Assembly: GCF_057098645.1 (NCBI RefSeq)
Contig: NZ_CM169472.1
Reading direction: 5' to 3' (one strand)
DNA length: 64,000 bases
This document shows, in pieces, positions 2,747 to 55,691 of this stretch (its first letter is position 1; every line of letters begins with the position of its first letter). The translations under genes were made by a program, and so were the position numbers. The notes beneath the pieces were generated by a model. The model was not told where the DNA came from and made no database searches. It worked only from the letters and a program-made list of their open reading frames with translations.

Positions 2747-4099
2747 ATGGCACTTGCAATGAAAGTAATCTCTCAAGTTGAAGCGCAGCGCAAGATTCTG
2801 GAAGAAGCAGTTTCCACTGCGCTGGAGTTGGCCTCAGGCAAATCGGACGGTGCGGAAGTTGCCGTCAGCAAGACCACCGGCATTAGCGTAAGCACGCGTT
2901 ATGGTGAAGTGGAGAATGTTGAATTCAATAGCGATGGCGCGCTGGGGATCACTGTTTATCACCAGAACCGCAAAGGTAGCGCATCATCCACCGATTTAAG
3001 CCCGCAGGCCATTGCCCGTACTGTACAGGCGGCGCTGGATATTGCCCGTTATACCTCGCCAGATCCCTGTGCCGGCGTGGCAGACAAAGAGCTGCTGGCC
3101 TTTGACGCACCAGATCTCGACTTGTTCCACCCTGCGGAAGTTTCCCCGGATGAAGCCATTGAACTGGCGGCCCGCGCAGAACAGGCGGCATTGCAGGCGG
3201 ACAAACGCATCACCAATACCGAAGGTGGCAGCTTTAACAGCCACTACGGTGTCAAAGTTTTTGGCAACAGCCACGGCATGTTGCAGGGTTACTGCTCAAC
3301 GCGTCATTCGCTCTCCAGCTGTGTAATTGCCGAAGAAAATGGCGATATGGAGCGTGATTACGCCTACACCATTGGGCGGGCGATGAGCGATCTGCAAACG
3401 CCAGAGTGGGTCGGGGCCGACTGTGCTCGCCGCACTTTATCGCGCCTGTCACCGCGAAAACTCTCCACCATGAAAGCGCCAGTGATTTTTGCTAATGAAG
3501 TGGCAACCGGGCTGTTCGGTCATCTGGTTGGCGCAATTGCAGGCGGTTCGGTTTACCGTAAATCTACCTTCCTGCTGGATTCGCTGGGTAAACAAATTCT
3601 GCCGGACTGGCTGACCATTGAAGAGCATCCGCATCTGCTGAAAGGGCTGGCGTCGACGCCATTCGACAGCGAAGGTGTGCGCACCGAGCGTCGCGATATT
3701 ATTAAAGATGGCATCCTGACTCAGTGGCTGCTGACCAGCTATTCGGCGCGAAAACTGGGGCTGAAAAGCACCGGACATGCGGGCGGTATTCACAACTGGC
3801 GGATTGCCGGACAAGGTCTAAGCTTCGAGCAGATGCTCAAAGAGATGGGCACCGGGCTGGTGGTGACGGAATTGATGGGCCAGGGCGTGAGTGCAATTAC
3901 CGGTGATTATTCCCGTGGTGCGGCGGGCTTCTGGGTAGAAAACGGCGAAATTCAGTATCCGGTTAGCGAAATCACCATCGCAGGTAATTTAAAAGATATG
4001 TGGCGCAATATTGTCACCGTCGGTAACGATATTGAAACACGCAGTAATATACAGTGTGGTTCTGTGCTGTTGCCGGAGATGAAAATCGCCGGACAGTAA
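2747..4099 (+). CDS. pmbA: metalloprotease PmbA/TldE
   Basis: 450-aa ORF, TldD/PmbA-like sequence, conserved synteny. Confidence 0.85.
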
Positions 4100-5753: not shown

Positions 5754-7892
5754 TCAACCTATCTGCCCATTTCCCAAATGTTTAACGCGGCGCTTAACTT
5801 CTTCCTGCTTACCGGCGTTAAACGGACGTGCATCCGGGCTACCTAAATATCCGCACACGCGGCGAGTTACCGACACACGGGAGGCGTCATGGTTACCACA
5901 TTTCGGGCAAGTGAAGCCTTTGCTGGTGCACTCGAACTCACCGGTAAAGCCACACTCGTAGCACTCATCAATCGGTGTATTGGTGCCGTAATACGGTACA
6001 TGCTGATAGCTGTAATCCCAGACATCTTCCAGCGCCTTCAGGTTGTGCTGAATGTTTGGATACTCGCCGTAGCAAATGAAACCACCGTTCGCCAGCGGCG
6101 GGTAAGGCGCTTCAAAGTCGATCTTGTCGTACGGGTTCACCTTCTTCTCCACATCGAGGTGGAAACTGTTGGTGTAGTAACCTTTATCGGTCACGCCCGG
6201 CACCACGCCAAACTCAGCAGTATCGAGACGGCAGAAGCGATCGCACAGGTTTTCACTCGGCGTGCTGTAGAGACTGAAACCATAACCCGTTTCTTCTTTC
6301 CACTGATCCACTGCCTGACGCAGACGTTCAACAATGGCGATACCTTTCGCGCGAAGCTGCTCGTTGTCGTAAACATGCTCGCCGCCGAACAGCGCGTTAA
6401 TGGTTTCGTGGATGCCGATGTAACCCAGCGAAATAGACGCACGACCGTTTTTGAAGATTTCAGAAACATCATCGTCAGCATTCAGACGCACGCCACAAGC
6501 ACCTTCCATATAGAGGATCGGGGCCACGCGCGCTTTCACGCCTTCGAGACGAGCGATACGGGTCATCAGCGCCTTACGTGCCAGCACCAGACGTTCATCC
6601 AGCAGCTTCCAGAAGGTGGCTTCATCGCCTTTTGCTTCCAGAGCAATACGCGGCAGGTTCAGGCTGATCACGCCGAGGTTGTTACGACCATCGTGGATCT
6701 GCTCGCCGTTTTCATTTTCCCACACGCCGAGGAAGCTGCGGCAGCCCATCGGAGTTTTAAACGAACCGGTGACTTTCACTACCTGATCGTAGTTCAGGAT
6801 ATCCGGATACATGCGCTTGCTTGCGCACTCCAGCGCCAGCTGTTTGATGTCGTAGTTCGGATCGCCTTTTTTATGGTTCAGGCCATCGCGAATCGCAAAC
6901 ACCAGTTTCGGGAACACCGCAGTTTTACGGTTTTTACCGAGGCCTGCGATACGGTTACGCAGGATAGATTCCTGAATCAGGCGCGACTCCCAGCTGGTGC
7001 CCAGACCAAAACCAAAGGTTACAAACGGCGTCTGACCGTTGGCGGTGTGCAGGGTGTTTACTTCGTACTCCAGCGACTGGAAGGCATCGTAGCACTCTTT
7101 AATGGTACGAGAGTTAGCGTAGCCTTCGGCGTCCGGGATGTTCCACTCTTCTGCGGTCTTGCGATGTTTGTTGTAGCTGGCGGTGACAAACGGTGCCAGC
7201 ACTTCATCGATACGGTTAATGGTGGTGCCGCCATAAATATGGCTGGCGACCTGAGCAATAATCTGCGCAGTTACCGCGGTTGCCGTAGAGATCGACTTCG
7301 GCGGTTCAATCTCGGCGTTCCCCATCTTAAAGCCCTGGGTCAGCATGCCTTTCAGGTCGATCAACATGCAGTTGAACATCGGGAAGAACGGCGAGTAATC
7401 GAGATCGTGATAGTGAATATCGCCACGCTCATGTGCCTGCACCACGTCACGCGGCAGCAGGTGCTGACGTGCATAGTGTTTAGCCACGATCCCGGCCAGC
7501 AGGTCGCGCTGGGTTGGAATCACCTTGCTGTCTTTGTTGGCGTTTTCGTTGAGTAACGAGGCGTTGGTCTGCTCGACCAGACCACGGATCTCCTGGTTCA
7601 GGCGACCGCGTTTTTCACGTTCAATGTCGCGATCGTGACGGTACTCGATGTAAGCACGAGCCAGTTGTTTGTATGGACCTGACATCAGCTGGTTTTCAAC
7701 AGCGGTCTGGATCTCATTGATATCCACCTGGTTGCGGCCCTGCATCTGCTCGCTGACAACCGCAGCAACAGTGGCGCAATAATCTGCATCATCGACTTCC
7801 GCTGCTTTAGCTGCACGCAGAATCGCTTCTTTGATGCGCTCTGATTTAAACGGCACTTTGCAGCCGTCTCGTTTCATCACATGCGGTGTCAT
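5754..7892 (-). CDS. nrdD: anaerobic ribonucleoside-triphosphate reductase (class III)
   Basis: 712-aa ORF with C-terminal glycyl radical motif (RVCGYLG) and zinc-ribbon cysteines. Confidence 0.92.
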   Translation of the reverse strand: MTPHVMKRDGCKVPFKSERIKEAILRAAKAAEVDDADYCATVAAVVSEQMQGRNQVDINEIQTAVENQLMSGPYKQLARAYIEYRHDRDIEREKRGRLNQEIRGLVEQTNASLLNENANKDSKVIPTQRDLLAGIVAKHYARQHLLPRDVVQAHERGDIHYHDLDYSPFFPMFNCMLIDLKGMLTQGFKMGNAEIEPPKSISTATAVTAQIIAQVASHIYGGTTINRIDEVLAPFVTASYNKHRKTAEEWNIPDAEGYANSRTIKECYDAFQSLEYEVNTLHTANGQTPFVTFGFGLGTSWESRLIQESILRNRIAGLGKNRKTAVFPKLVFAIRDGLNHKKGDPNYDIKQLALECASKRMYPDILNYDQVVKVTGSFKTPMGCRSFLGVWENENGEQIHDGRNNLGVISLNLPRIALEAKGDEATFWKLLDERLVLARKALMTRIARLEGVKARVAPILYMEGACGVRLNADDDVSEIFKNGRASISLGYIGIHETINALFGGEHVYDNEQLRAKGIAIVERLRQAVDQWKEETGYGFSLYSTPSENLCDRFCRLDTAEFGVVPGVTDKGYYTNSFHLDVEKKVNPYDKIDFEAPYPPLANGGFICYGEYPNIQHNLKALEDVWDYSYQHVPYYGTNTPIDECYECGFTGEFECTSKGFTCPKCGNHDASRVSVTRRVCGYLGSPDARPFNAGKQEEVKRRVKHLGNGQIG

Positions 7893-8127
7893 GATCGCTC
7901 CATATTTTTAAGAACAGGTTATCCACAGAAATTGGGAAAGGCGTTTTCCGGTTTTTTCGTTTCGTTTTCCGGTGCTTTCCGCAATCGCCATCCGCTTATC
8001 CACAACGCCGCACCTTTTTCGTGGGGAGCTGTAGTAGCAATTATAGTCGATTAATACAACATATTGGGTTGGGATGCATTTTAAAGTCTATATATAGTGC
8101 TTTGCATCAAGGATGTTTGAACTTTTT

Positions 8128-8285: not shown

Positions 8286-9941
8286 TTACTTCTGTAACCA
8301 CCAGACAGCCTCAAAAGGCCGTAGAGTCATGGCACAGGGTTGTGGTGAGGCTTCTTCGTAGTTATGCATCACAAGCTGCCAGTTGCCGCGCATTTGCCCT
8401 GGCTGCCAGGGTTGGATCTCACGGCTAAGGTTGGCAATGACCAGCAAGGTTTGCCCCTTCCATTCACGGCGATAGCACCACAATACAGGGCTGTTTGGCA
8501 GCAGATCCTGGTAATTGCCCCATGTCAGGATGGCTTCCTGCTTACGCAGTGCGATTAACTTTTGGTAGGTGTAAAACACCGAGGAATCATCGGCCAACGC
8601 GGCTTCTACGTTGATTTGTTGATAGTTATCGCCCAGGCCAATCCACGGTTCGCCAGCCGTAAACCCGGCATTATCGCCGTTGCTCCATTGCATGGGCGTG
8701 CGGCTGTTGTCACGGGATTTACTGGCGAGGATTGCCAATAACTCGTCGGCATCACGCCCATCGTTGCGCAGCTCGGCAAACATATTGAGGCTCTCTACGT
8801 CGCGATAGTCAGTAATGCGCGTGAAATGCGGGTTAGTCATGCCAATCTCTTCGCCCTGGTAGATATACGGCGTTCCCTGCATGCCATGCAGCACCATCGC
8901 CAGCATTTTTGCCGCAGGCACGCGGTATTCACCTTCATCACCAAAGCGAGAAACAATGCGCGGCTGATCGTGGTTACACCAGAACAAGGCATTCCATGCC
9001 ACGTTGTGCATTCCTTGTTGCCAGTGGCGGAACAATGTTTTCAACGCCACAAAGTCAGGTTTAGCCAGCGTCCATTTTTCACCACCGGGATAATCGACCT
9101 TCAGGTGATGAAAATTAAATGTCATCGATAATTCACTGCCTGTCAGTGCCGCGTATCGCTGGCAATGCTCAAGGCTGGTGGAGGACATTTCACCTACGGT
9201 CATTAACCCGCGTGGCGTAAACACATCGCGGTTCATCTCGTGCAAAAACTCGTGTGCTCGTGGCCCGTCGGTGTAGAAGCGACGCCCGTCGCCGTCCAGG
9301 TCTTCAGGGAAACGCGGGTCTTTGGAGATCAGATTCACCACATCCAGGCGCAACCCGTCGACCCCACGATCGGCCCAGAACTCACAGACTTTTTTCAGCT
9401 CTGCGCGTACCGCTGGATTCTCCCAGTTGAGATCCGCCTGTTCTGGTGCAAAGAGATGCAAATAGTACTGTTCGCTTTCCGCATGCCAGCGCCACGCACT
9501 ACCGCCAAATTTTGAACGCCAGTTGTTCGGTGGCGTTTCTGGTTCGCCATCGCGCCAGATATAAAACTGGCGGTAAGGGCTTTCTTTGTTCAGCGCCTCG
9601 CGAAACCAGGCATGTTGGGTAGAGGTATGGTTAAACACCATATCGAGAATGATACGAATCCCGCGCGATTTTGCCTGCGTCACCAGTTCGTCAAAATCGT
9701 CCAGCGTGCCGTAGGTGGGATCAATCGCCGTATAGTTCGCTACGTCGTAACCGTTATCGACCTGGGGAGAGACATAAAAGGGGGTTAGCCAGATGGCATC
9801 AACGCCCAGTTTATGCAGATAGTCCAGGCGTTGGATAACGCCACGTAAATCGCCGGTGCCGCTACCCGTGGTGTCCTGAAAACTCTTTGGATAAATCTGG
9901 TAGATAACGCCGTTTTGCCACCAGTGGGGAAGATTAGTCAT
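8286..9941 (-). CDS. treC: trehalose-6-phosphate hydrolase
   Basis: GH13 alpha-glucosidase sequence starting MTNLPHWWQNGVIYQIYPKSF; the listed ORF extends upstream of the true start. Confidence 0.9.
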   Translation of the reverse strand: MTNLPHWWQNGVIYQIYPKSFQDTTGSGTGDLRGVIQRLDYLHKLGVDAIWLTPFYVSPQVDNGYDVANYTAIDPTYGTLDDFDELVTQAKSRGIRIILDMVFNHTSTQHAWFREALNKESPYRQFYIWRDGEPETPPNNWRSKFGGSAWRWHAESEQYYLHLFAPEQADLNWENPAVRAELKKVCEFWADRGVDGLRLDVVNLISKDPRFPEDLDGDGRRFYTDGPRAHEFLHEMNRDVFTPRGLMTVGEMSSTSLEHCQRYAALTGSELSMTFNFHHLKVDYPGGEKWTLAKPDFVALKTLFRHWQQGMHNVAWNALFWCNHDQPRIVSRFGDEGEYRVPAAKMLAMVLHGMQGTPYIYQGEEIGMTNPHFTRITDYRDVESLNMFAELRNDGRDADELLAILASKSRDNSRTPMQWSNGDNAGFTAGEPWIGLGDNYQQINVEAALADDSSVFYTYQKLIALRKQEAILTWGNYQDLLPNSPVLWCYRREWKGQTLLVIANLSREIQPWQPGQMRGNWQLVMHNYEEASPQPCAMTLRPFEAVWWLQK

Positions 9942-37922: not shown

Positions 37923-38007
37923 GCCGAAGTGGCGAAATCGGTAGACGCAGTTGATTCAAAATCAACCGTAGAAATACGTGCCGGTTCGAGTCCGGCCTTC
38001 GGCACCA
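37923..38007 (+). tRNA. leuX: tRNA-Leu (anticodon CAA)
   Basis: 85-nt sequence GCCGAAGTGGCGAAATCGGTAGACGCAGTTGATTCAAAATCAACCGTAGAAATACGTGCCGGTTCGAGTCCGGCCTTCGGCACCA with long variable arm. Confidence 0.95.
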
Positions 38008-39911: not shown

Positions 39912-40730
39912 ATGAATAAGCAAGAAGTTATACTTAAAGTGCAGGAGTGTGCTGCGTGGTGGATTTTGGAGAGACAAAGTAAACTAACAAAGTTAATGTC
40001 AGAAACAATGTCCATAAATCCGTTTATGACCCCTTTTATTTTTGATTATCATTCCCTTAATGATTTTGATGAACTAGTTGAAGCAATAATTGCTAAGCAT
40101 TTAATGACTGGGCATGATACTGGCTTTGGAAAATTGATTGATGAAAAAATACTTCCTAGAGTGTTTGGTGCATATAAATTAGATAAAAGTTATAGAGCTG
40201 CCAACGAGCCTTTTATACACCCTTGCTTTGATGAAATAGATCATGTAATACAAAGGGATGATGGTAGAATTGAGCTTTTATCTCTTAAGGCAGGGAAATG
40301 GACTATTCAATTGACGATGGCTGTCCAACTAAATAAAGCATTTCACGAAATCATAAATAATTATCCTGGAGTGGCTGACAATATAGTGGTTGGGGTTTTT
40401 TATGGAAATAGCCATGGATTAACTGATAAGTATAGAATCTTACGAGGTATCAATACTGGTGCAAACCACAATGTGATTGATATTCGTGACAAAGTGCATG
40501 TATATGCTGGTAAAGAATTTTGGTCATGGCTTAACAATGGTGAGGCTGAAACCCAGCATTGGGTACTTGAAGGTATAGAACGTGCTGTAAAAGAAGCAGA
40601 TATAAAAGAAAAAAATAAAGATCTTATTGAAAAATTCAAAGAACATGTTGCAAAGAAGTACAATGAGCAAGTTCTAAATGCTGATGGCACAGCTCAATGG
40701 CACAAATTACTTGAAATGATTAATGAATAA
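39912..40730 (+). CDS. uncharacterised protein, candidate type II restriction endonuclease (by context)
   Basis: 272-aa AT-rich ORF convergent with a C5-MTase and preceded by a C-protein-like HTH; possible PD-(D/E)xK-like segment DEIDHVIQRDDGRIELLSLK. Confidence 0.4.
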   Translation: MNKQEVILKVQECAAWWILERQSKLTKLMSETMSINPFMTPFIFDYHSLNDFDELVEAIIAKHLMTGHDTGFGKLIDEKILPRVFGAYKLDKSYRAANEPFIHPCFDEIDHVIQRDDGRIELLSLKAGKWTIQLTMAVQLNKAFHEIINNYPGVADNIVVGVFYGNSHGLTDKYRILRGINTGANHNVIDIRDKVHVYAGKEFWSWLNNGEAETQHWVLEGIERAVKEADIKEKNKDLIEKFKEHVAKKYNEQVLNADGTAQWHKLLEMINE

Positions 40731-40767
40731 AAAACTGGCCTAAGGGCCAGTTTTTTTATGACTAATT

Positions 40768-42021
40768 CTAAACTTCTTCTTCAAGGTCGTAGTAAGAAAC
40801 ATCTCCACTATATGCTTGACCATTTTTAAAGAAAGATCTGGTTCTAATATGCGGTCTAATATGGGTTTCTATATAATCTGGAGTTACTAAATCAGCAACC
40901 TTATTTTCTTGTATACGATGAAGAAGTTCCATAGCAGCTTCCCCTGCAACTTTACCTAACCGGACAGGAACTGCGTTACCTATCTGTCTGAATTTTTCTG
41001 TAGTTGTACCTTCAAATTTCCAGTAATCAGGAAACTCTTGTATCGCGGCAGCTTCACCAACAGAAATAGCTCTAAGTTCAGTTGGGTGGCACATACTTGT
41101 TCCCGCATGATTTGGCATTGTTACTACTGTGGGTGAAGGAAACTGGAAAGATAGTTTCCTCCAGTAAGCACTTCTTCCTCCTTTAAGATACCAGCTTTTT
41201 CCCATAGATTCTTTTTGCATTTCTTCTGGCATGCTTCTCCAGTTTCCGCCAGGTGGAACCATTGAAAGATATTTCAGTTTTCTTGGCGAAAAATTCATGA
41301 CTTCTGGATATTTATCAACAAAACCGCTCTCTGGGCCAATTACATCCCCCAGCGTTTTGAATGGCGGAAGATTATCTTCTACTCTATTGCTGAATAAAGG
41401 GGAGGCGAAATTGGCTATCATTCCGAAGCGATTACCAATTAAAATAACACGCTCCCTAATTTGTGGGGCTCCATAGTTGGCAGCATTAACTACAAAGCAA
41501 TCCACATGATAACCTAGTTTATTGAATTCGTTAGCTACCCTTTTTATTAGAGAGCCTTTTTCGAAAGCAGATGCTGCGATTGTGCCTGATAGCTCCTTCT
41601 TTTTAGAAGCTGGAACTATAGACATTGATAATAAACCGCGTACGTTTTCCATTACGAAAACTTTTGGGTTTAATTCTTTAATCATTCGAACGTATTCGAA
41701 AATAAGCTGCCCTCTGGCATCTTCTAGCCCTAACCTATTTCCAAAAACACTAAATGCTTGGCACGGTGGACCGCCAGCAACTAAATCTATTTCTTCTTTA
41801 TCATTCACTCCGGCTAGTGCTAATAATTCAGAGCCAGTGCAGTCAACAATACTACCTTCGAATACAGCAAGATTTGGCTTATTAGTTTTAATTGTTTTTA
41901 GAGCTGCCTTATCTTGTTCAACGCAAGCTACGAGCTCAAAGCCAGCCTCTTCGAGACCTAAGTCTAACCCCATTGCGCCACTAAATAGCGAAATAAACTT
42001 TTTACTAGACAAAATAATCAC
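40768..42021 (-). CDS. DNA (cytosine-5)-methyltransferase
   Basis: 417-aa ORF with motif I FSGAMG, motif IV GGPPCQAFS, motif VI ENV. Confidence 0.85.
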   Translation of the reverse strand: MIILSSKKFISLFSGAMGLDLGLEEAGFELVACVEQDKAALKTIKTNKPNLAVFEGSIVDCTGSELLALAGVNDKEEIDLVAGGPPCQAFSVFGNRLGLEDARGQLIFEYVRMIKELNPKVFVMENVRGLLSMSIVPASKKKELSGTIAASAFEKGSLIKRVANEFNKLGYHVDCFVVNAANYGAPQIRERVILIGNRFGMIANFASPLFSNRVEDNLPPFKTLGDVIGPESGFVDKYPEVMNFSPRKLKYLSMVPPGGNWRSMPEEMQKESMGKSWYLKGGRSAYWRKLSFQFPSPTVVTMPNHAGTSMCHPTELRAISVGEAAAIQEFPDYWKFEGTTTEKFRQIGNAVPVRLGKVAGEAAMELLHRIQENKVADLVTPDYIETHIRPHIRTRSFFKNGQAYSGDVSYYDLEEEV

Positions 42022-49451: not shown

Positions 49452-51785
49452 ATGAAAATGAACGTAACCGCCACCGTCAGCCATGCGCTCGGCCACTGGC
49501 CGCGTATTCTCCCGGCGCTGGGGATTCAGGTGCTGAAAAACCGTCATCAGCCCTGTCCGGTCTGTGGCGGGAGTGACCGCTTCCGTTTTGATGACAGGGA
49601 GGGGCGCGGCACCTGGTACTGCAATCAGTGTGGTGCCGGTGACGGCCTGAAACTGGTTGAAAAGGTGTTTGGTGTCTCCCCGTCCGACGCGGCCGCAAAG
49701 GTGGCTGCCGTGACCGGCAGCCTGCCCCCGGCTGACCCGGCAGTGACGGCTGCCGCCGGTGCTGAAACAGACGCTGCCCGGAAGAACGCCGCCGCACTGG
49801 CACAAACCCTGATGGCGAAAACCCGTCCCGGAACCGGTAACGCCTACCTGACCCGCAAGGGCTTTCCCGGCCGGGAATGCCGGATGCTGACCGGCACACA
49901 CAGATCCGGTGGCGTGAGCTGGCGTGCCGGTGACCTTGTGGTGCCACTGTATGACGACAGCGGCGAACTGGTTAACCTTCAGTTAATCAGTGCTGACGGC
50001 CGTAAGCGCACCCTGAAAGGCGGACAGGTCAGGGGCACCTGTCACACCCTTGAAGGACAGAATCAGGCCGGAAAACGTCTGTGGATAGCGGAGGGATACG
50101 CGACCGCACTTACCGTACATCACCTGACCGGTGAAACGGTGATGGTGGCGCTTTCTTCCGTGAACCTCCTTTCTCTGGCCAGCCTTGCCCGGCAGAAGCA
50201 TCCGGCCTGTCAGATTGTCCTTGCCGCAGACCGTGACCTCAGCGGTGACGGCCAGAAAAAAGCCGCCGCAGCCGCAGATGCGTGTGAGGGCGTTGTTGCC
50301 CTGCCGCCGGTCTTCGGTGACTGGAATGATGCCTTCACGCAGTACGGCGGGGAGGCCACCCGTAAGGCCATTTACGATGCCATCCGGCCACCGGCTGAAA
50401 GCCCGTTCGACACCATGAGCGAAGCAGAGTTTTCCGCCATGAGTACCAGCGAAAAGGCCATGCGTATCTATGAGCATTACGGCGAGGCGCTCGCGGTTGA
50501 TGCCAACGGCCAGCTTCTGTCCCGTTATGAAAATGGTGTCTGGAAGGTGCTGCCGCCACAGGACTTTGCCCGGGATGTGGCCGGGCTGTTTCAGCGTCTG
50601 CGCGCGCCGTTCTCCTCCGGGAAGGTGGCCTCCGTGGTGGACACCCTGAAGCTGATTATTCCGCAGCAGGAAGCCCCCTCCCGCCGCCTGATTGGCTTTC
50701 GTAACGGCGTGCTCGACACGCAGAACGGCACGTTCCACCCGCACAGTCCGTCACACTGGATGCGCACCCTGTGCGATGTGGATTTCACCCCGCCGGTGGA
50801 CGGTGAAACGCTGGAGACCCACGCCCCCGCGTTCTGGCGCTGGCTTGACCGTGCCGCCGGTGGCCGTGCGGAAAAACGCGACGTGATTCTGGCCGCACTG
50901 TTTATGGTGCTGGCAAACCGCTATGACTGGCAGCTCTTTCTGGAGGTGACCGGTCCCGGCGGCAGCGGCAAAAGTATCATGGCCGAAATAGCCACCCTGC
51001 TGGCCGGTGAGGATAACGCCACGTCGGCCACTATTGAGACGCTGGAATCCCCGCGTGAACGTGCCGCGTTAACTGGCTTCTCACTGATACGCCTGCCGGA
51101 CCAGGAAAAATGGAGCGGCGACGGTGCCGGACTCAAGGCCATCACCGGCGGCGATGCGGTGTCCGTGGACCCGAAATACCGGGATGCGTACTCCACGCAT
51201 ATCCCGGCGGTGATTCTGGCCGTGAACAATAACCCGATGCGCTTCACCGACCGCAGCGGCGGCGTGTCACGCCGGCGGGTGATTATTCACTTCCCGGAAC
51301 AGATAGCCCCGCAGGAGCGCGACCCGCAACTTAAGGACAAAATCACCCGCGAGCTGGCGGTCATCGTGCGTCACCTGATGCAGAAGTTCAGCGACCCGAT
51401 GCTCGCCCGGTCACTGCTTCAGTCCCAGCAGAACTCAGACGAGGCACTGAACATCAAACGGGATGCCGACCCGACGTTTGATTTTATCGGCTATCTGGAA
51501 ACCCTGCCGCAGACCAGCGGCATGTATATGGGGAACGCCAGTATCATCCCGCGTAATTACCGTAAATACCTCTATCACGCCTATCTGGCCTACATGGAGG
51601 CAAACGGCTACCGGAATGTACTCAGTCTGAAAATGTTCGGGCTGGGGCTGCCGGTGATGCTGAAGGAATACGGGCTGAATTACGAGAAGCGCCATACCAA
51701 ACAGGGGATACAGACCAACCTGACGCTGAAAGAGGAAAGCTACGGCGACTGGCTGCCAAAATGTGACGACCCTGCAACAACCTGA
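49452..51785 (+). CDS. alpha: P4-like alpha primase-helicase
   Basis: 777-aa ORF with N-terminal zinc-binding primase motif (CPVCGG...CNQCG), Walker A GPGGSGKS, P4 position. Confidence 0.85.
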   Translation: MKMNVTATVSHALGHWPRILPALGIQVLKNRHQPCPVCGGSDRFRFDDREGRGTWYCNQCGAGDGLKLVEKVFGVSPSDAAAKVAAVTGSLPPADPAVTAAAGAETDAARKNAAALAQTLMAKTRPGTGNAYLTRKGFPGRECRMLTGTHRSGGVSWRAGDLVVPLYDDSGELVNLQLISADGRKRTLKGGQVRGTCHTLEGQNQAGKRLWIAEGYATALTVHHLTGETVMVALSSVNLLSLASLARQKHPACQIVLAADRDLSGDGQKKAAAAADACEGVVALPPVFGDWNDAFTQYGGEATRKAIYDAIRPPAESPFDTMSEAEFSAMSTSEKAMRIYEHYGEALAVDANGQLLSRYENGVWKVLPPQDFARDVAGLFQRLRAPFSSGKVASVVDTLKLIIPQQEAPSRRLIGFRNGVLDTQNGTFHPHSPSHWMRTLCDVDFTPPVDGETLETHAPAFWRWLDRAAGGRAEKRDVILAALFMVLANRYDWQLFLEVTGPGGSGKSIMAEIATLLAGEDNATSATIETLESPRERAALTGFSLIRLPDQEKWSGDGAGLKAITGGDAVSVDPKYRDAYSTHIPAVILAVNNNPMRFTDRSGGVSRRRVIIHFPEQIAPQERDPQLKDKITRELAVIVRHLMQKFSDPMLARSLLQSQQNSDEALNIKRDADPTFDFIGYLETLPQTSGMYMGNASIIPRNYRKYLYHAYLAYMEANGYRNVLSLKMFGLGLPVMLKEYGLNYEKRHTKQGIQTNLTLKEESYGDWLPKCDDPATT

Positions 51786-52320: not shown

Positions 52321-52344
52321 GTTTGAGTCCGGCCTTCGCACCAC
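52321..52344 (+). repeat. degenerate direct repeat of the tRNA-Leu 3' end (attR-like island boundary)
   Basis: gtttgagtccggccttcgcaccac versus tRNA 3' end gttcgagtccggccttcggcacca. Confidence 0.55.
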
Positions 52345-53020
52345 ACCGTATGCAAATCGAGTCGCTCAAGGGCGGCTTTTTTTGTGTCTGAAATCACCCA
52401 TATCCGTGCAGTATATAGGCCTGCCAGAAAAGCAGTTCAGTATTCTTCATTTTGTAGTCGATGGTCCCAAGTTTGCTCTGGCTGGAAGCTGCATCGTCCA
52501 CATTACGTGGGCAGGGTGGTTTCGCTATGCTACTTGAACGTTTTGACCATGTGGCTCAGGTAGCTAATATCAAAAGACGTCATTTTGTCTCCACGCCCAC
52601 CTTGGTGAACATTCAATAAATAGTTTCGGTCGAGAGCAGTTATGTAGGGCTAGCAGACGAGATGCGCAGACATCTTGTTGAAGACAATTATACTGACCAC
52701 CTGAGAACGCTATTCTACCGAATAATATTTATTATCTTGGCGAATAATGATGATTACCTGTGTAACTATGGTTTTATGCTGATGGGACCGGCAGTACAAT
52801 TTCTGTAGTGTACTCGCAATTTCAGATCTCTGGCGTTTATTCTGGTGCAAAGGAGGTATGTGATGAAAACTTTGCTACCATGCCATTAAATGCGACCAAT
52901 ATCGGATTATCCATCAGTTGCTTGTCGTAGATTTCATTGGTTATAAAAATGCAAGGTGTAAAAGATGAAATTTATAATTATTAGTTAAGTGGCTAGTTTT
53001 ATAGTAATTTAGACAATAGG

Positions 53021-55069
53021 ATGTATGGAAAAATGGAAAAAGTTTATGATACCACTAGAATTAGTAATCTTGCTAACGACCCGAAACAGTTTTGTTCTTT
53101 TTTTTGTGAGTACATAAAAAGAGATGATATTAGTATAGATATCGCCTTGGATGTGCTGAGAATATCTTCCATCTATTATAATAGATTTTCAGTTCAGACT
53201 GAAGTTGAGTATAACAATACATTCAAAAAATGTATTAATGAGCTAGTAAACTCATTTCCTGATAACATTGAACTAATTTCTGAGTTCGAGAGTCAATGTA
53301 AAATTATGCATGATATAAATAATTCTTTCTTTGCGGCTACAAAATGTGCTGGTATTTGGCGTGAAAATACAAAAAAATCACATGCATTAATACTTAATCT
53401 CATCATGTTTTGTGAGATGTTTTTATCATCATTATCATCCTTGGTTGTGGTCAATGATCCTAAAAAAATGAAGAGGATTTTTCCATTATTTATCGTTTCT
53501 GAAAATATTAATATTCATGCTGAACCTGATATCGAATATTTTCGAGTTATCGATAGGGCATTTGATGAGGTAGCCAATTACACCGGAAGAATATTTTCTT
53601 ATTTACGGACTCATGAGCCATTGAAACTAACTTCTTGTGTGAATAAACAAACCTTGCTTTCAATGGGAGGGTACCTTAATGAGTGGAATGTTTTTGACTC
53701 ATTAAGCAGAGTAAGAGACTTTTTCAGACTAAGTAGTGCAGTATTTACAAAATTGGATAATAACATTTACTCTCTTGAGGTTGATAGTTTTTGTTTATAC
53801 CGAGATTATGAGATTGCAAGAAATAGACTAATGATGAGAGCGTCACATCTATATAGCGAAGTTCATGAATTTAGTAACAAACATTTTCATCTAAATAGTT
53901 GGGTAAAGGATCATATGCCATCTTACTTAAATTCTGATGGCGTTTTTAGCTCATTTCATCTAAGCGAGTTGGAAAATATGTCTCCTGATGACCTTCATGA
54001 AGAATATGGGAATATATCATTATTTAATTGGGTGCACGCTTATCAATGTTTAGTCGAGTTATCTAAAGAAGAAATGAGCAAAAGATTTTCATCGACAAAA
54101 CCTATACCCCTACAGTTGGATCGCTGGCTGATCATAAAAAGCCGTGAGAGTTGGTTATCATTCTTTCAACGTAAGGGGATTGCAGCAGATGCAGCAAAAA
54201 AACTGATAGATTATTTTACCTTCAATTCAAAATCACATGATCTTAATGATTGCCCATTTATTCCCTGTATGGACGGTTTATGCTTAATGCCTGCATTCAT
54301 AGCAAATAGCTCAGTGACTCGCTCTCTAATGTCATTATTTGGTTCCAAAAAAATTTCTCAAGCAAGTAAAGGGCGATTTCATGAGCAACAATTTATAAAA
54401 CAAGTTCGTGATGCGGGGATTAAAGCTTCTCCAATTGATGCTCATGCTAATTATCAGTGCGATTGCGTGATTCTCCTGGATGATTGTTTGATTTTTACAG
54501 AACTAAAATCAAATGGTCAACCAATATATTATGGTAAGTACTATCAGCAAGTGTGTAACATCGTTGGAGATAGCTCATTAATACATGATCATAATAATAA
54601 ATTTATGCGTTCTTATTTTCAACAAATAAATCGAACTTCTGAACATTATCTTAATCATCTTGATGTGATCATTAAAGAATTCGAACTACCATCAACATGG
54701 CAACCCAAAGGTGTGTATAAGCTTATTGTTACTACAACTATGCTCGGTGGGAAATATCATGTGGATGATACATATGTAGCGGACAAATATGCATTATCTA
54801 GTTTTTTTCAACGAATACCTGGAGTGATATATCAAACAAATGAAAATGGAGAAATGGCGAAAAATATCATTGATGGGTTTGAGTGTTGCGAAGGGGAAAT
54901 CACTATCGATAAGTTTATAGATTATCTTTCCTCTTTGCCCGGTATTAATGCTGTACGTAAAAATATACAAAAATTAACTTATAGTGTTCGATTTAATGAA
55001 AAACTAGTCCATCACCCTTATTATGATTCTTGGGCTTTTGGCCCATATATTCGTAAGGGAAATGATTAG
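53021..55069 (+). CDS. large AT-rich hypothetical protein, no recognisable motif
   Basis: 682-codon uninterrupted ORF in an island of low GC; standalone gene flanked by long noncoding regions. Confidence 0.55.
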   Translation: MYGKMEKVYDTTRISNLANDPKQFCSFFCEYIKRDDISIDIALDVLRISSIYYNRFSVQTEVEYNNTFKKCINELVNSFPDNIELISEFESQCKIMHDINNSFFAATKCAGIWRENTKKSHALILNLIMFCEMFLSSLSSLVVVNDPKKMKRIFPLFIVSENINIHAEPDIEYFRVIDRAFDEVANYTGRIFSYLRTHEPLKLTSCVNKQTLLSMGGYLNEWNVFDSLSRVRDFFRLSSAVFTKLDNNIYSLEVDSFCLYRDYEIARNRLMMRASHLYSEVHEFSNKHFHLNSWVKDHMPSYLNSDGVFSSFHLSELENMSPDDLHEEYGNISLFNWVHAYQCLVELSKEEMSKRFSSTKPIPLQLDRWLIIKSRESWLSFFQRKGIAADAAKKLIDYFTFNSKSHDLNDCPFIPCMDGLCLMPAFIANSSVTRSLMSLFGSKKISQASKGRFHEQQFIKQVRDAGIKASPIDAHANYQCDCVILLDDCLIFTELKSNGQPIYYGKYYQQVCNIVGDSSLIHDHNNKFMRSYFQQINRTSEHYLNHLDVIIKEFELPSTWQPKGVYKLIVTTTMLGGKYHVDDTYVADKYALSSFFQRIPGVIYQTNENGEMAKNIIDGFECCEGEITIDKFIDYLSSLPGINAVRKNIQKLTYSVRFNEKLVHHPYYDSWAFGPYIRKGND

Positions 55070-55092
55070 AGCAATTTATTATATAGTCCATG

Positions 55093-55134
55093 TTATTCAC
55101 TGATTATATTATTGATAATATAATCAGTGAATAA
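55093..55134. promoter_or_regulatory. 42-bp perfect inverted repeat (20-bp arms, 2-nt centre)
   Basis: ttattcactgattatattat tg ataatataatcagtgaataa, 24 bp downstream of the 682-aa ORF stop. Confidence 0.4.
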
Positions 55135-55467
55135 CTCTAATTTTTTTAATGTTGGGGGGTAGCCTGAAATTGAAATTGGTACTACGGAACGGTATGATCA
55201 TATCGCATCAAAATATCAAGGTAGTGATGATTTTCTACGCAACGATCCAGAAACGTGGATTTTATCATCACCATAAGCAATGGCAGCGACAACACCATCA
55301 ATTTCTATATCAAAGGTGGTGAAATGAATTAGAAAATTGTTTATTTAATCCATTAGCGATAAGTTTTATTGTTATTTAGCCGAGATATATTCCATTGAAA
55401 AAAGTAAATTGGCACTGATATTATATCAAATGGGAATAATCCTTTTGTAAATAAGCTGAGGAATGTG

Positions 55468-55650
55468 TTAATTCACATCCAGCGCCTTATAAACCGCATC
55501 AACCGGTTCTGAGTAAAAACTTACCTGAAACTTGGTAAACAACTCTGCCGGAACTGTTGGAATATCCATAGCCGAGGATATCGGCAACAGAACACGTTTT
55601 GCGCCGCTATCGAAGGCGAGTTGTAAACTAGCGGCAAGATCCTGCACTGA
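55468..55650 (-). pseudogene. C-terminal remnant of a Lon-like (S16) protease gene
   Basis: 60-codon open frame without start: ...AKRVLLPISSAMDIPTVPAELFTKFQVSFYSEPVDAVYKALDVN resembles the Lon protease domain C-terminus; truncated at the 5' side. Confidence 0.3.
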
Positions 55651-55691
55651 TTATGTCAGCAATATTGAACATACTGCGATAGTTATCAACC

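Follow-up and report, generated by a model that had tools for sequence, protein, structure and literature searches.

A predicted stand-alone NERD-type nuclease as a candidate single-gene anti-phage defence in the leuX hotspot of Escherichia coli

Single polypeptides built around a PD-(D/E)xK nuclease form a recognised class of anti-phage defence, which includes Shedu, Upx, Hna-like proteins and ZwsA. ZwsA of Pseudomonas aeruginosa is a stand-alone protein of ~80 kDa with the domain order VHS-DUF647-NERD-S4 and the catalytic residues E535, D567, E580 and K582, and it is reported to cleave selectively the genomes of single-stranded RNA phages (bioRxiv 10.64898/2026.04.06.716636). Upx (PDB 9wuf) is likewise a single-protein PD-(D/E)xK defence (PMC13099982). 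Hochhauser et al. 2023 listed the leuX slot of E. coli, at tRNA_Leu_CAA between nanS and yjgB(/ahr), as defence hotspot #37; the slot is filled in 97.3% of E. coli genomes, 97.4% of the filled slots contain one or more known defence systems, and 31 system types have been recorded there (PMC10121019). Here we describe a gene in this slot, at positions 53033 to 55069 on the plus strand of a 64,000-nucleotide stretch of contig NZ_CM169472.1 (assembly GCF_057098645.1), referred to below as the window. As far as sequence and modelled structure place it, the product resembles the single-polypeptide class but is a demonstrable member of none of its named systems.

On balance, we think it rather probable that the gene encodes a stand-alone sensor-nuclease anti-phage defence protein, and the circumstantial support for a single-protein defence is strong. 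A preliminary description of the window had put the gene forward as a candidate for single-protein defence or abortive infection, on the premise that it held no recognisable motifs. Its location in hotspot #37, its nuclease fold and the defence genes that adjoin its homologues speak for that candidacy; the premise itself has to be given up.

The protein and its nuclease core

The open reading frame (ORF) is uninterrupted from 53021 to 55069 on the plus strand, 682 codons in the ORF listing of the window, so that the long intact frame of the preliminary description stands. So does the strong AT bias: the two 1-kb bins spanning the ORF have a G+C of 0.316 and 0.341, as against 0.55-0.62 in the P4-like element that adjoins it upstream. 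The frame is not a chance event, because stop codons make up ~7.6% of random triplets at the composition of the ORF, and an open frame of 682 codons would arise with a probability of ~1e-24. As a protein, however, 682 residues is only the maximal length. Every homologue aligns from the second methionine of that frame, and the RefSeq counterpart, WP_000416999.1 (a 678-aa 'hypothetical protein' found in hundreds of E. coli genomes), begins with the second ATG; position 53033 is therefore the likelier start, and the product probably has 678 amino acids. In our literature search WP_000416999 was named in no paper, and none of the papers on OI-172 covered the gene. The coding sequence and its parts are as follows.

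53033..55069 (+): coding sequence, predicted 678-aa stand-alone NERD-type nuclease (ORF listing, WP_000416999.1, homologue starts, AlphaFold2 model)
53033..53992 (+): N-terminal all-helical domain, aa 1-320, the most variable part, presumed sensor/specificity module
53098..53105 (+): T8 tract, codons 22-25 of the 678-aa form, shortened to T7 with a frameshift in avian pathogenic E. coli (APEC) O1 and in a contig from a metagenome-assembled genome (MAG)
53993..54352 (+): conserved middle region, aa 321-440, helix-helix-beta-hairpin, possibly winged-helix-like
54353..54817 (+): PD-(D/E)xK (NERD-type) nuclease core, aa 441-595
54818..55066 (+): alpha/beta domain at the C-terminus, aa 596-678, variable, bearing the conserved motif [YF]-E-G-x-I-T-x-x-K-L (alignments, conservation profile)

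AlphaFold2 modelled the 678-aa protein with a predicted local distance difference score (pLDDT) of 91.5 and a predicted template-modelling score (pTM) of 0.90. The protein carries a PD-(D/E)xK nuclease core in NERD form: the restriction-endonuclease-like alpha-beta-beta-beta-alpha-beta fold is there, with the D...(D/E)-x-K signature on strands 2 and 3 and an acidic residue on helix 1. The candidate catalytic residues are E451, D477 (54461-54463), E490 (54500-54502) and K492 (54506-54508), and Q531 is also conserved; from the four candidates we infer an active site for metal-dependent cleavage of nucleic acid. In an alignment of 60 sequences, reaching down to ~16-20% identity to the query, P408, G447, D477, E490, K492, Q531 and D584 are invariant and E451 is nearly so. 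The D-x12-E-x-K spacing is kept in nearly every family representative, and the G-x3-E helix lies 26-35 residues before the aspartate. It is this D-x12-E-x-K PD-(D/E)xK/NERD core that contradicts the earlier statement that the frame has no recognisable motifs.

Conservation is uneven along the chain, at 1.3-1.5 bits over aa 1-320, 1.94 bits over aa 321-440, 2.11 bits over aa 441-595 and 1.4 bits over aa 596-678. A variable N-terminus attached to a conserved nuclease half is the pattern of other sensor-effector defence proteins. The highest value, 2.56 bits, falls on aa 401-420 and coincides with an S-x-D403-L-x-D406-C-P408 block (window 54233-54292), an acidic element that lies outside the canonical nuclease core and just before the beta-hairpin.

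Profile libraries register the protein faintly. Family members give weak Pfam matches to NERD, Card1_endonuc, Mrr_cat and Hjc; the Pfam NERD model (PF08378) recognises 2 of the 60 aligned members at E <= 1e-3 and 9 of the 60 at E <= 0.1, and the query itself does not match. Searched with the query, Pfam and NCBIfam returned only a chance match to PHB-depolymerase, and PHROGs and a PDB sequence search returned none. The sole PADLOC match was a local one to the candidate system PDC-M29B (E = 1.1e-3), over aa 466-515 within the nuclease core; the library was PADLOC-DB v2.0.0, and systems described after 2023 lie outside it. For the C-terminal domain, hhalign and a PDB profile search gave chance-level matches, with neither S4 nor any other family among them. 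In the structural comparison the match figures, as listed, were FokI 10.8, Upx 10.0, AF1548 9.9, BspD6I 9.6, Hna 8.8, Can2 8.1, McrC 8.0 and SduA 7.5.

The likeness to Shedu, Upx, Hna-like proteins and, as far as its description goes, ZwsA is restricted to the nuclease core. With the NERD family (PF08378) the protein shares the core fold and the G-x3-E ... D-x12-E-x-K motif, and its relatives match the hidden Markov model weakly, but the E. coli protein itself falls below Pfam detection, the nuclease accounts for only ~155 of 678 residues, and the 320-aa helical N-terminus, the D403/D406 block and the C-terminal domain lie outside the described families. The resemblance to ZwsA is one of layout: a single island-borne gene, a product of ~80 kDa, a NERD core towards the C-terminus with the D-x12-E-x-K spacing, and a small C-terminal domain. 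In ZwsA, which we could compare by description only, the catalytic residues lie ~90 positions further along, and its S4, VHS and DUF647 domains are not detectable with Pfam in the E. coli protein or in the 60 members. We do not assign the protein to ZwsA: a positional scan of the family proteins gave no match, and an S4-like character of the C-terminal domain found no support, as hhalign of the C-terminal profile against a manually entered Hsp15 sequence returned a probability of 0.1% and the PDB profile search stayed at chance level. Upx differs in its length of 1212 aa and in its N-terminal domain, which contains a second, atypical nuclease, and no sequence similarity to it was found. Shedu (SduA, DUF4263) is ~400 aa long as against 678, its N-terminal fold is unrelated, and PADLOC gave no Shedu match. 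With FokI and BspD6I the identity is 10-11% and the similarity is confined to the nuclease core; unlike those enzymes, the gene has no cognate methyltransferase within the cassette that carries it (52396-55184, delimited below).

How such a protein might act can be sketched, with the defence function, the catalytic activity, the sensor role of the N-terminus, the trigger and the substrate all taken as predictions. The fast-evolving helical N-terminal domain (aa 1-320), perhaps together with the C-terminal domain, would recognise an infection cue or a target, and the NERD-type PD-(D/E)xK core (aa 441-595) would supply metal-dependent cleavage of nucleic acid. On infection the nuclease would cut phage nucleic acid, or would cut indiscriminately and lead to abortive infection, and phage propagation would stop. 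Transcription would proceed from the gene's own upstream region and end at a hairpin terminator. The gene itself appears to have arrived in the leuX hotspot as a 2.8-kb AT-rich cassette (52396-55184), replacing part of an AbiE/PLD/BREX-1 array. As to the substrate, our guess leans modestly towards DNA and leaves RNA a large minority share. DNA is favoured because of the FokI-like structural matches, the possible winged-helix element and the lack of a methyltransferase; RNA retains its share because the stand-alone NERD protein ZwsA is reported to cut RNA-phage genomes. Whether the unnamed family constitutes a new single-gene anti-phage system, in which a helical sensor fold not described before is combined with an invariant acidic D-x2-D-C-P element that gates a NERD nuclease, is a question on which we are nearly evenly divided, leaning slightly to doubt. 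The same family might extend the NERD-based immunity against RNA phages known from ZwsA to Enterobacteria.

Relatives, their neighbourhoods and the fate of the frame

The protein belongs to a sizeable family. An exhaustive phmmer search gave at least 223 clusters at 50% identity, nearly all of 600-700 aa, from Firmicutes and Proteobacteria, and many relatives of the same length align only from about residue 300 on. Foldseek against AFDB50 recovered 372 relatives at E <= 1e-3, with template-modelling (TM) scores of 0.7-0.97 among the full-length matches listed; almost all of them carry the UniProt name 'NERD domain-containing protein', and the genera represented include Bacillus, Paenibacillus, Listeria, Streptococcus, Salmonella, Xenorhabdus, Legionella and Agrobacterium. 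A profile-based homologue search yielded, in essence, the E. coli set once more and gave nothing new. Among 100,044 species representatives, searched with patterns drawn from the Enterobacterales alignment only, three loci carry the gene.

In the contexts that we inspected, each distant homologue stands as a single gene, and no partner is conserved. On metagenome contigs the neighbours are a type I restriction-modification (RM) system with a Cap4 nuclease, an AbiJ-like gene, a HigBA-like pair and a DUF4365 protein. One homologue rides as cargo of a Tn7-like element beside a Gabija-like OLD/UvrD pair and an SLFN_AlbA_2 protein; another shares an integrase island with genes for a KAP NTPase, Mrr and PIN proteins; and in two Firmicute prophages the gene takes the slot directly after the lysis genes, in one of them beside pPIWI-RE. 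Two loci of distant homologues have, upstream, a small gene that adjoins or overlaps the NERD gene. One of these genes (7020-7997 of its locus) encodes a 325-aa HTH_17 protein and is separated from the NERD gene by 3 nt; the other (7480-8010 of its locus) encodes a 176-aa hypothetical protein and overlaps the NERD gene by 13 nt. Such small genes are not conserved elsewhere, and they may be lineage-specific regulators or partners.

The preliminary description had held that clear homology to a phage structural, adhesin or metabolic protein would speak against its proposal. That check was run and the candidate identity dismissed: no such homology was found, and no genome among the sequenced phages searched encodes the protein.

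Within E. coli the gene occurs in 334 of 5426 complete genomes (~6%), nearly always at an identity of at least 99%, and its carriers include O145:H28 enterohaemorrhagic E. coli (EHEC) and the uropathogenic (UPEC) strain 536. Frame integrity was judged from alignment spans in 56 carriers sampled evenly down the ranking. A frame-breaking indel or interruption is present in 15 of the 56 (~27%), some of which, in assemblies made from long reads only, may be sequencing errors; ~73% keep the frame. In APEC O1 the T8 tract has become T7, and a contig labelled as a Lachnospiraceae MAG, 98% identical to the gene, shares the change; this contig is probably mis-binned E. coli. Strain Combat11I9 has T5 shortened to T4 at 53720, and ETEC1738 has lost a C at 54968. 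UTI89 and IMT5155 carry 2048-nt alleles, with a 1-nt loss read from allele length. Pairwise blastn of the alleles indicates that the aligned lesions are mutually independent. Pairwise pN/pS among seven alleles (the window and six loci) is mostly 0.1-0.45, a ratio from very few substitutions, too few for it to bear weight. Within the ORF the T8 tract is a candidate either for a mutational hotspot or for a slip-strand on/off switch.

Evidence that the frame is a pseudogene in relatives had been named in advance as a further ground for rejecting the proposal. The broken copies lend that view part of what it needs; the intact majority and a full-length architecture conserved across phyla stand against it. 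The patchy distribution, the AT-richness and the independent frameshifts fit a horizontally moving, costly accessory gene.

Island structure and flanking sequence at leuX

The sequences on either side of the gene record a layered history, and the features needed to follow it are these.

37923-38007: tRNA-Leu(CAA) gene leuX (ARAGORN)
52321..52344 (+): copy of the last 24 nt of tRNA-Leu(CAA), attR of a P4-like satellite (blastn)
52359..52378 (+): native leuX intrinsic terminator (terminator scan: 8-bp stem, 4 GC pairs, T run)
52396..53032 (+): cassette-specific upstream region, AT-richer towards the ORF, free of RefSeq features
55092..55135 (+): hairpin with 21-nt arms and T run (repeat search, terminator scan, RNA fold)
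55185..55467 (-): remnant, 85% identical to the end of a PLD-like gene and the intergenic DNA downstream of brxL in strains with intact BREX-1 (megablast/blastn, O111:H8 and others)
55468..55647 (-): pseudogene fragment of BrxL (BREX Lon-like protease), last 58 residues (PADLOC E = 1.7e-19, profile positions 623-680 of 680)
55692..56564 (-): phosphorothioated-DNA-binding HNH restriction endonuclease (RefSeq name; PADLOC HNH 5.6e-25, mREase_IV 7e-8)

The 14.3 kb between leuX and its 24-nt copy are a P4-like satellite with integrase, psu, delta and alpha primase (49452-51785) genes; a type II RM pair at 39912-42021 belongs to this satellite, which is separate from the ORF cassette. By blastn, window positions 52321-52395 align to the tRNA 3' end and downstream sequence of two related loci. 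The O145:H28 strains are without the satellite, and in them the tRNA directly abuts the sequence equivalent to 52321 onward, with leuX 690 bp upstream of the ORF. The block 52321-56637 is shared with APEC O1 at 98.7%.

The bounds of the ORF-specific DNA, 52396-55184, come from comparison with the same slot in O111:H8, where an integrase remnant, AbiEi/AbiEii, a PLD-like protein and a complete BREX-1 precede the phosphorothioate (PT)-dependent HNH endonuclease. By this comparison of island versions, the ORF cassette has replaced part of an older defence array (AbiE/PLD/BREX-1). The gene debris that the preliminary description had noticed 3' of the ORF can now be named as the PLD-like remnant and the C-terminal 58 residues of BrxL, the latter flagged by RefSeq as an incomplete pseudogene. 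Together with the intact O111:H8 version, these scars (55185-55647) document the turnover of systems by deletion and replacement.

The HNH endonuclease is 97.6% identical to the gene beside BREX-1 in O111:H8. Because the O111:H8 slot holds it without the ORF, it is a conserved right-hand anchor of several island versions rather than a partner specific to the ORF, and for the same reason we discarded a two-gene system made up of the ORF and this PT-dependent endonuclease. In the parts of the window inspected, no dnd or PT-modification genes were seen. The maximal ORF of the endonuclease (55692-56720, minus strand) would give 342 aa as against 290 aa in the RefSeq call, and the extra 52 N-terminal codons are probably not translated.

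Beyond the endonuclease the window and O145 have Zorya II and Druantia III inserted into nanM, whereas in APEC O1 the genes nanS', nanM, nanC and fimB follow directly after the shared block and neither Zorya nor Druantia is present. Among the neighbours in the window are ZorE, ZorB and ZorA, and in two near-identical RefSeq loci DruH/DruE-like genes come after Zorya. Fragments of nanM (N-acetylneuraminate epimerase) at window positions 56637-56914 mark the insertion point; in APEC O1 and ETEC1738 nanM and nanC are intact and both systems are missing.

A further trace of the gene lies elsewhere. A 98-bp scar of a diverged NERD-gene allele, 85% identical to nt 1113-1212 of the ORF, is found ~150 bp from an intact brxL in the chromosome of E. 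coli 4621 (9001-9098 of the retrieved locus) and in plasmid C of strain S30 (4001-4098 of the retrieved locus). It is flanked by a degraded IS3 and the intact brxL, with which it is convergent; 19 records fall in the 80-90% identity band, and two were inspected. These scars are a second, independent association of a NERD gene with the brxL end of BREX-1 islands.

Upstream of the start codon, RefSeq has no gene as far as the tRNA-Leu 3'-end copy and terminator (52321-52378), a gene-free stretch of ~650 bp that bears out the ~675 bp of noncoding AT-rich sequence first reported. The region 52396-53032 is common to APEC O1 and O145 and missing from the O111:H8 version of the island. Sigma-70-like matches in it are weak and at background frequency, and no Rfam family matches it; we take it to carry the promoter and 5' leader. 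Downstream, the repeat that had been described as a perfect 42-bp palindrome is indeed perfect, but it is not continuous: arms of 21 nt (55092-55112 and 55115-55135) enclose a 2-nt centre, 44 bp in all, beginning 22 nt past the stop codon. The RNA fold has an energy of -26.3 kcal/mol (z = -5.4) and a T run follows directly, so that this hairpin is most likely the intrinsic terminator of the gene. A structured RNA element in the upstream region or the palindrome was also considered and set aside, Rfam giving only sub-threshold, miRNA-like chance matches on the hairpin.

Alternative explanations and significance

Four other accounts of the gene deserve to be weighed against a stand-alone sensor-nuclease defence, and the one nearest to it is a variant of it. 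The protein could be a solitary type IV or type IIS-like restriction endonuclease, whose N-terminal and middle domains read a DNA feature, for instance a modified base or a particular sequence, and whose FokI-like domain directly cuts DNA as it enters, with no abortive part; this would be a sub-mechanism of defence, not an alternative to it, and type IV-like action is possible, yet we regard this version as unlikely. No reader fold of the SRA, EVE/YTH, SBD or DUF3427-like kind was detected in the N- or C-terminal parts, the PADLOC models of type II and type IV restriction endonucleases gave no match, and extreme N-terminal divergence at constant length fits the sensing of a protein under an arms race better than the reading of a DNA modification. 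The cognate methyltransferase that marks type II and type IIS systems is likewise missing: the cassette (52396-55184) holds only this gene, and in the inspected RefSeq loci no methyltransferase adjoins it. An RNA-targeting effector of the ZwsA (Zowangsin) type, cleaving the genomes of single-stranded RNA phages such as the F-pilus phages MS2 and Qbeta, would account for the layout of long helical N-terminus, NERD core and small C-terminal domain that the two proteins share, and for a D-x12-E-x-K spacing that is the same in ZwsA and strictly conserved here. That spacing may, however, be common to NERD domains at large; among the 150 listed representatives the catalytic residues nowhere fall at the ZwsA positions, and Pfam, hhalign and the PDB profile search picked up no S4 signal in the C-terminal domain, nor were there VHS or DUF647 matches. 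We consider a ZwsA-type effector quite improbable.

The scars near brxL suggest a different relationship, in which the gene was an accessory 'back-up' nuclease of a neighbouring system, originally BREX-1, and was left here as an orphan after BREX was deleted. BREX loci have been reported to recruit auxiliary nucleases, NERD-type included (PMC12839542); the cassette abuts a brxL remnant and the remnant of the PLD-like gene that elsewhere follows brxL; and in strain 4621 and on S30 plasmid C the diverged-allele scar lies close to an intact brxL and points towards it. Linkage to the BREX operon is nevertheless seen only as scars. The intact gene stands without BREX in all carriers inspected, with at most the BrxL and PLD remnants near it, its distant homologues adjoin many different systems or none, with no BREX genes in the inspected contexts, and co-location in a hotspot alone can explain the adjacency, and we think an origin as a BREX accessory very unlikely. 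A role outside defence, as a mobile-element nuclease (for maintenance, for competition, or as a toxin without a recognised antitoxin) or as a decaying passenger, has little probability in our estimate, though it draws on the broken frames at several independent positions and on homologues that sit on plasmids or between insertion sequence (IS) elements and adjoin no defence genes. Transcriptional silence, common among AT-rich foreign genes in E. coli, also counts for this account. Against such a role, the full-length architecture and the catalytic residues are conserved across Firmicutes and Proteobacteria, from which we argue that the function is under selection; the gene has no conserved companion such as an antitoxin, recombinase or transposase, the phages searched do not encode it, and most sampled E. 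coli copies keep the frame.

Several points nonetheless weigh against the stand-alone sensor-nuclease defence that we favour. The gene is dispensable, because roughly a quarter of the sampled E. coli carriers hold a broken frame, and pN/pS exceeds 1 in some allele pairs, with very few substitutions behind the ratio. The literature searched yielded no experimental phenotype for the protein or for any family member, and no PADLOC, Pfam, NCBIfam or PHROG model claims it. Homologues on an Izhakiella chromosome and on three Bacillales plasmids have nothing obviously defensive beside them. The invariant acidic D403/D406 motif has three candidate roles, as extra metal ligands, as an autoinhibitory plug or as an interface, and the oligomeric state is a prediction, as are the catalytic activity, the trigger and the substrate.

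If the defence function is confirmed, the gene would add a compact (2 kb), one-gene nuclease defence, present in ~6% of complete genomes, to the list known from E. coli, and it would close a gap in the annotation of #37 (the leuX/OI-172 region), the best-studied defence hotspot. To a specialist, one more nuclease in this hotspot would be unsurprising; the family, however, is large, wholly uncharacterised and easy to test. The gene sits in strains that have been used to dissect the synergy of Zorya, Druantia and ARMADA, and an overlooked neighbour could confound experiments on host range and synergy in carrier strains. In the ST95 strains UTI89 and APEC O1 it is inactivated by a 1-nt deletion (in APEC O1, within the T8 tract), and natural frameshift alleles of this kind are ready-made isogenic controls. 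Even if the gene is inert, the locus records the stepwise turnover of a hotspot, through the insertion of a P4 satellite, the deletion of BREX and the insertion of Zorya and Druantia into nanM. In its combination of a conserved nuclease half with a hypervariable N-terminal half, the family offers a tractable route to finding a new phage trigger.

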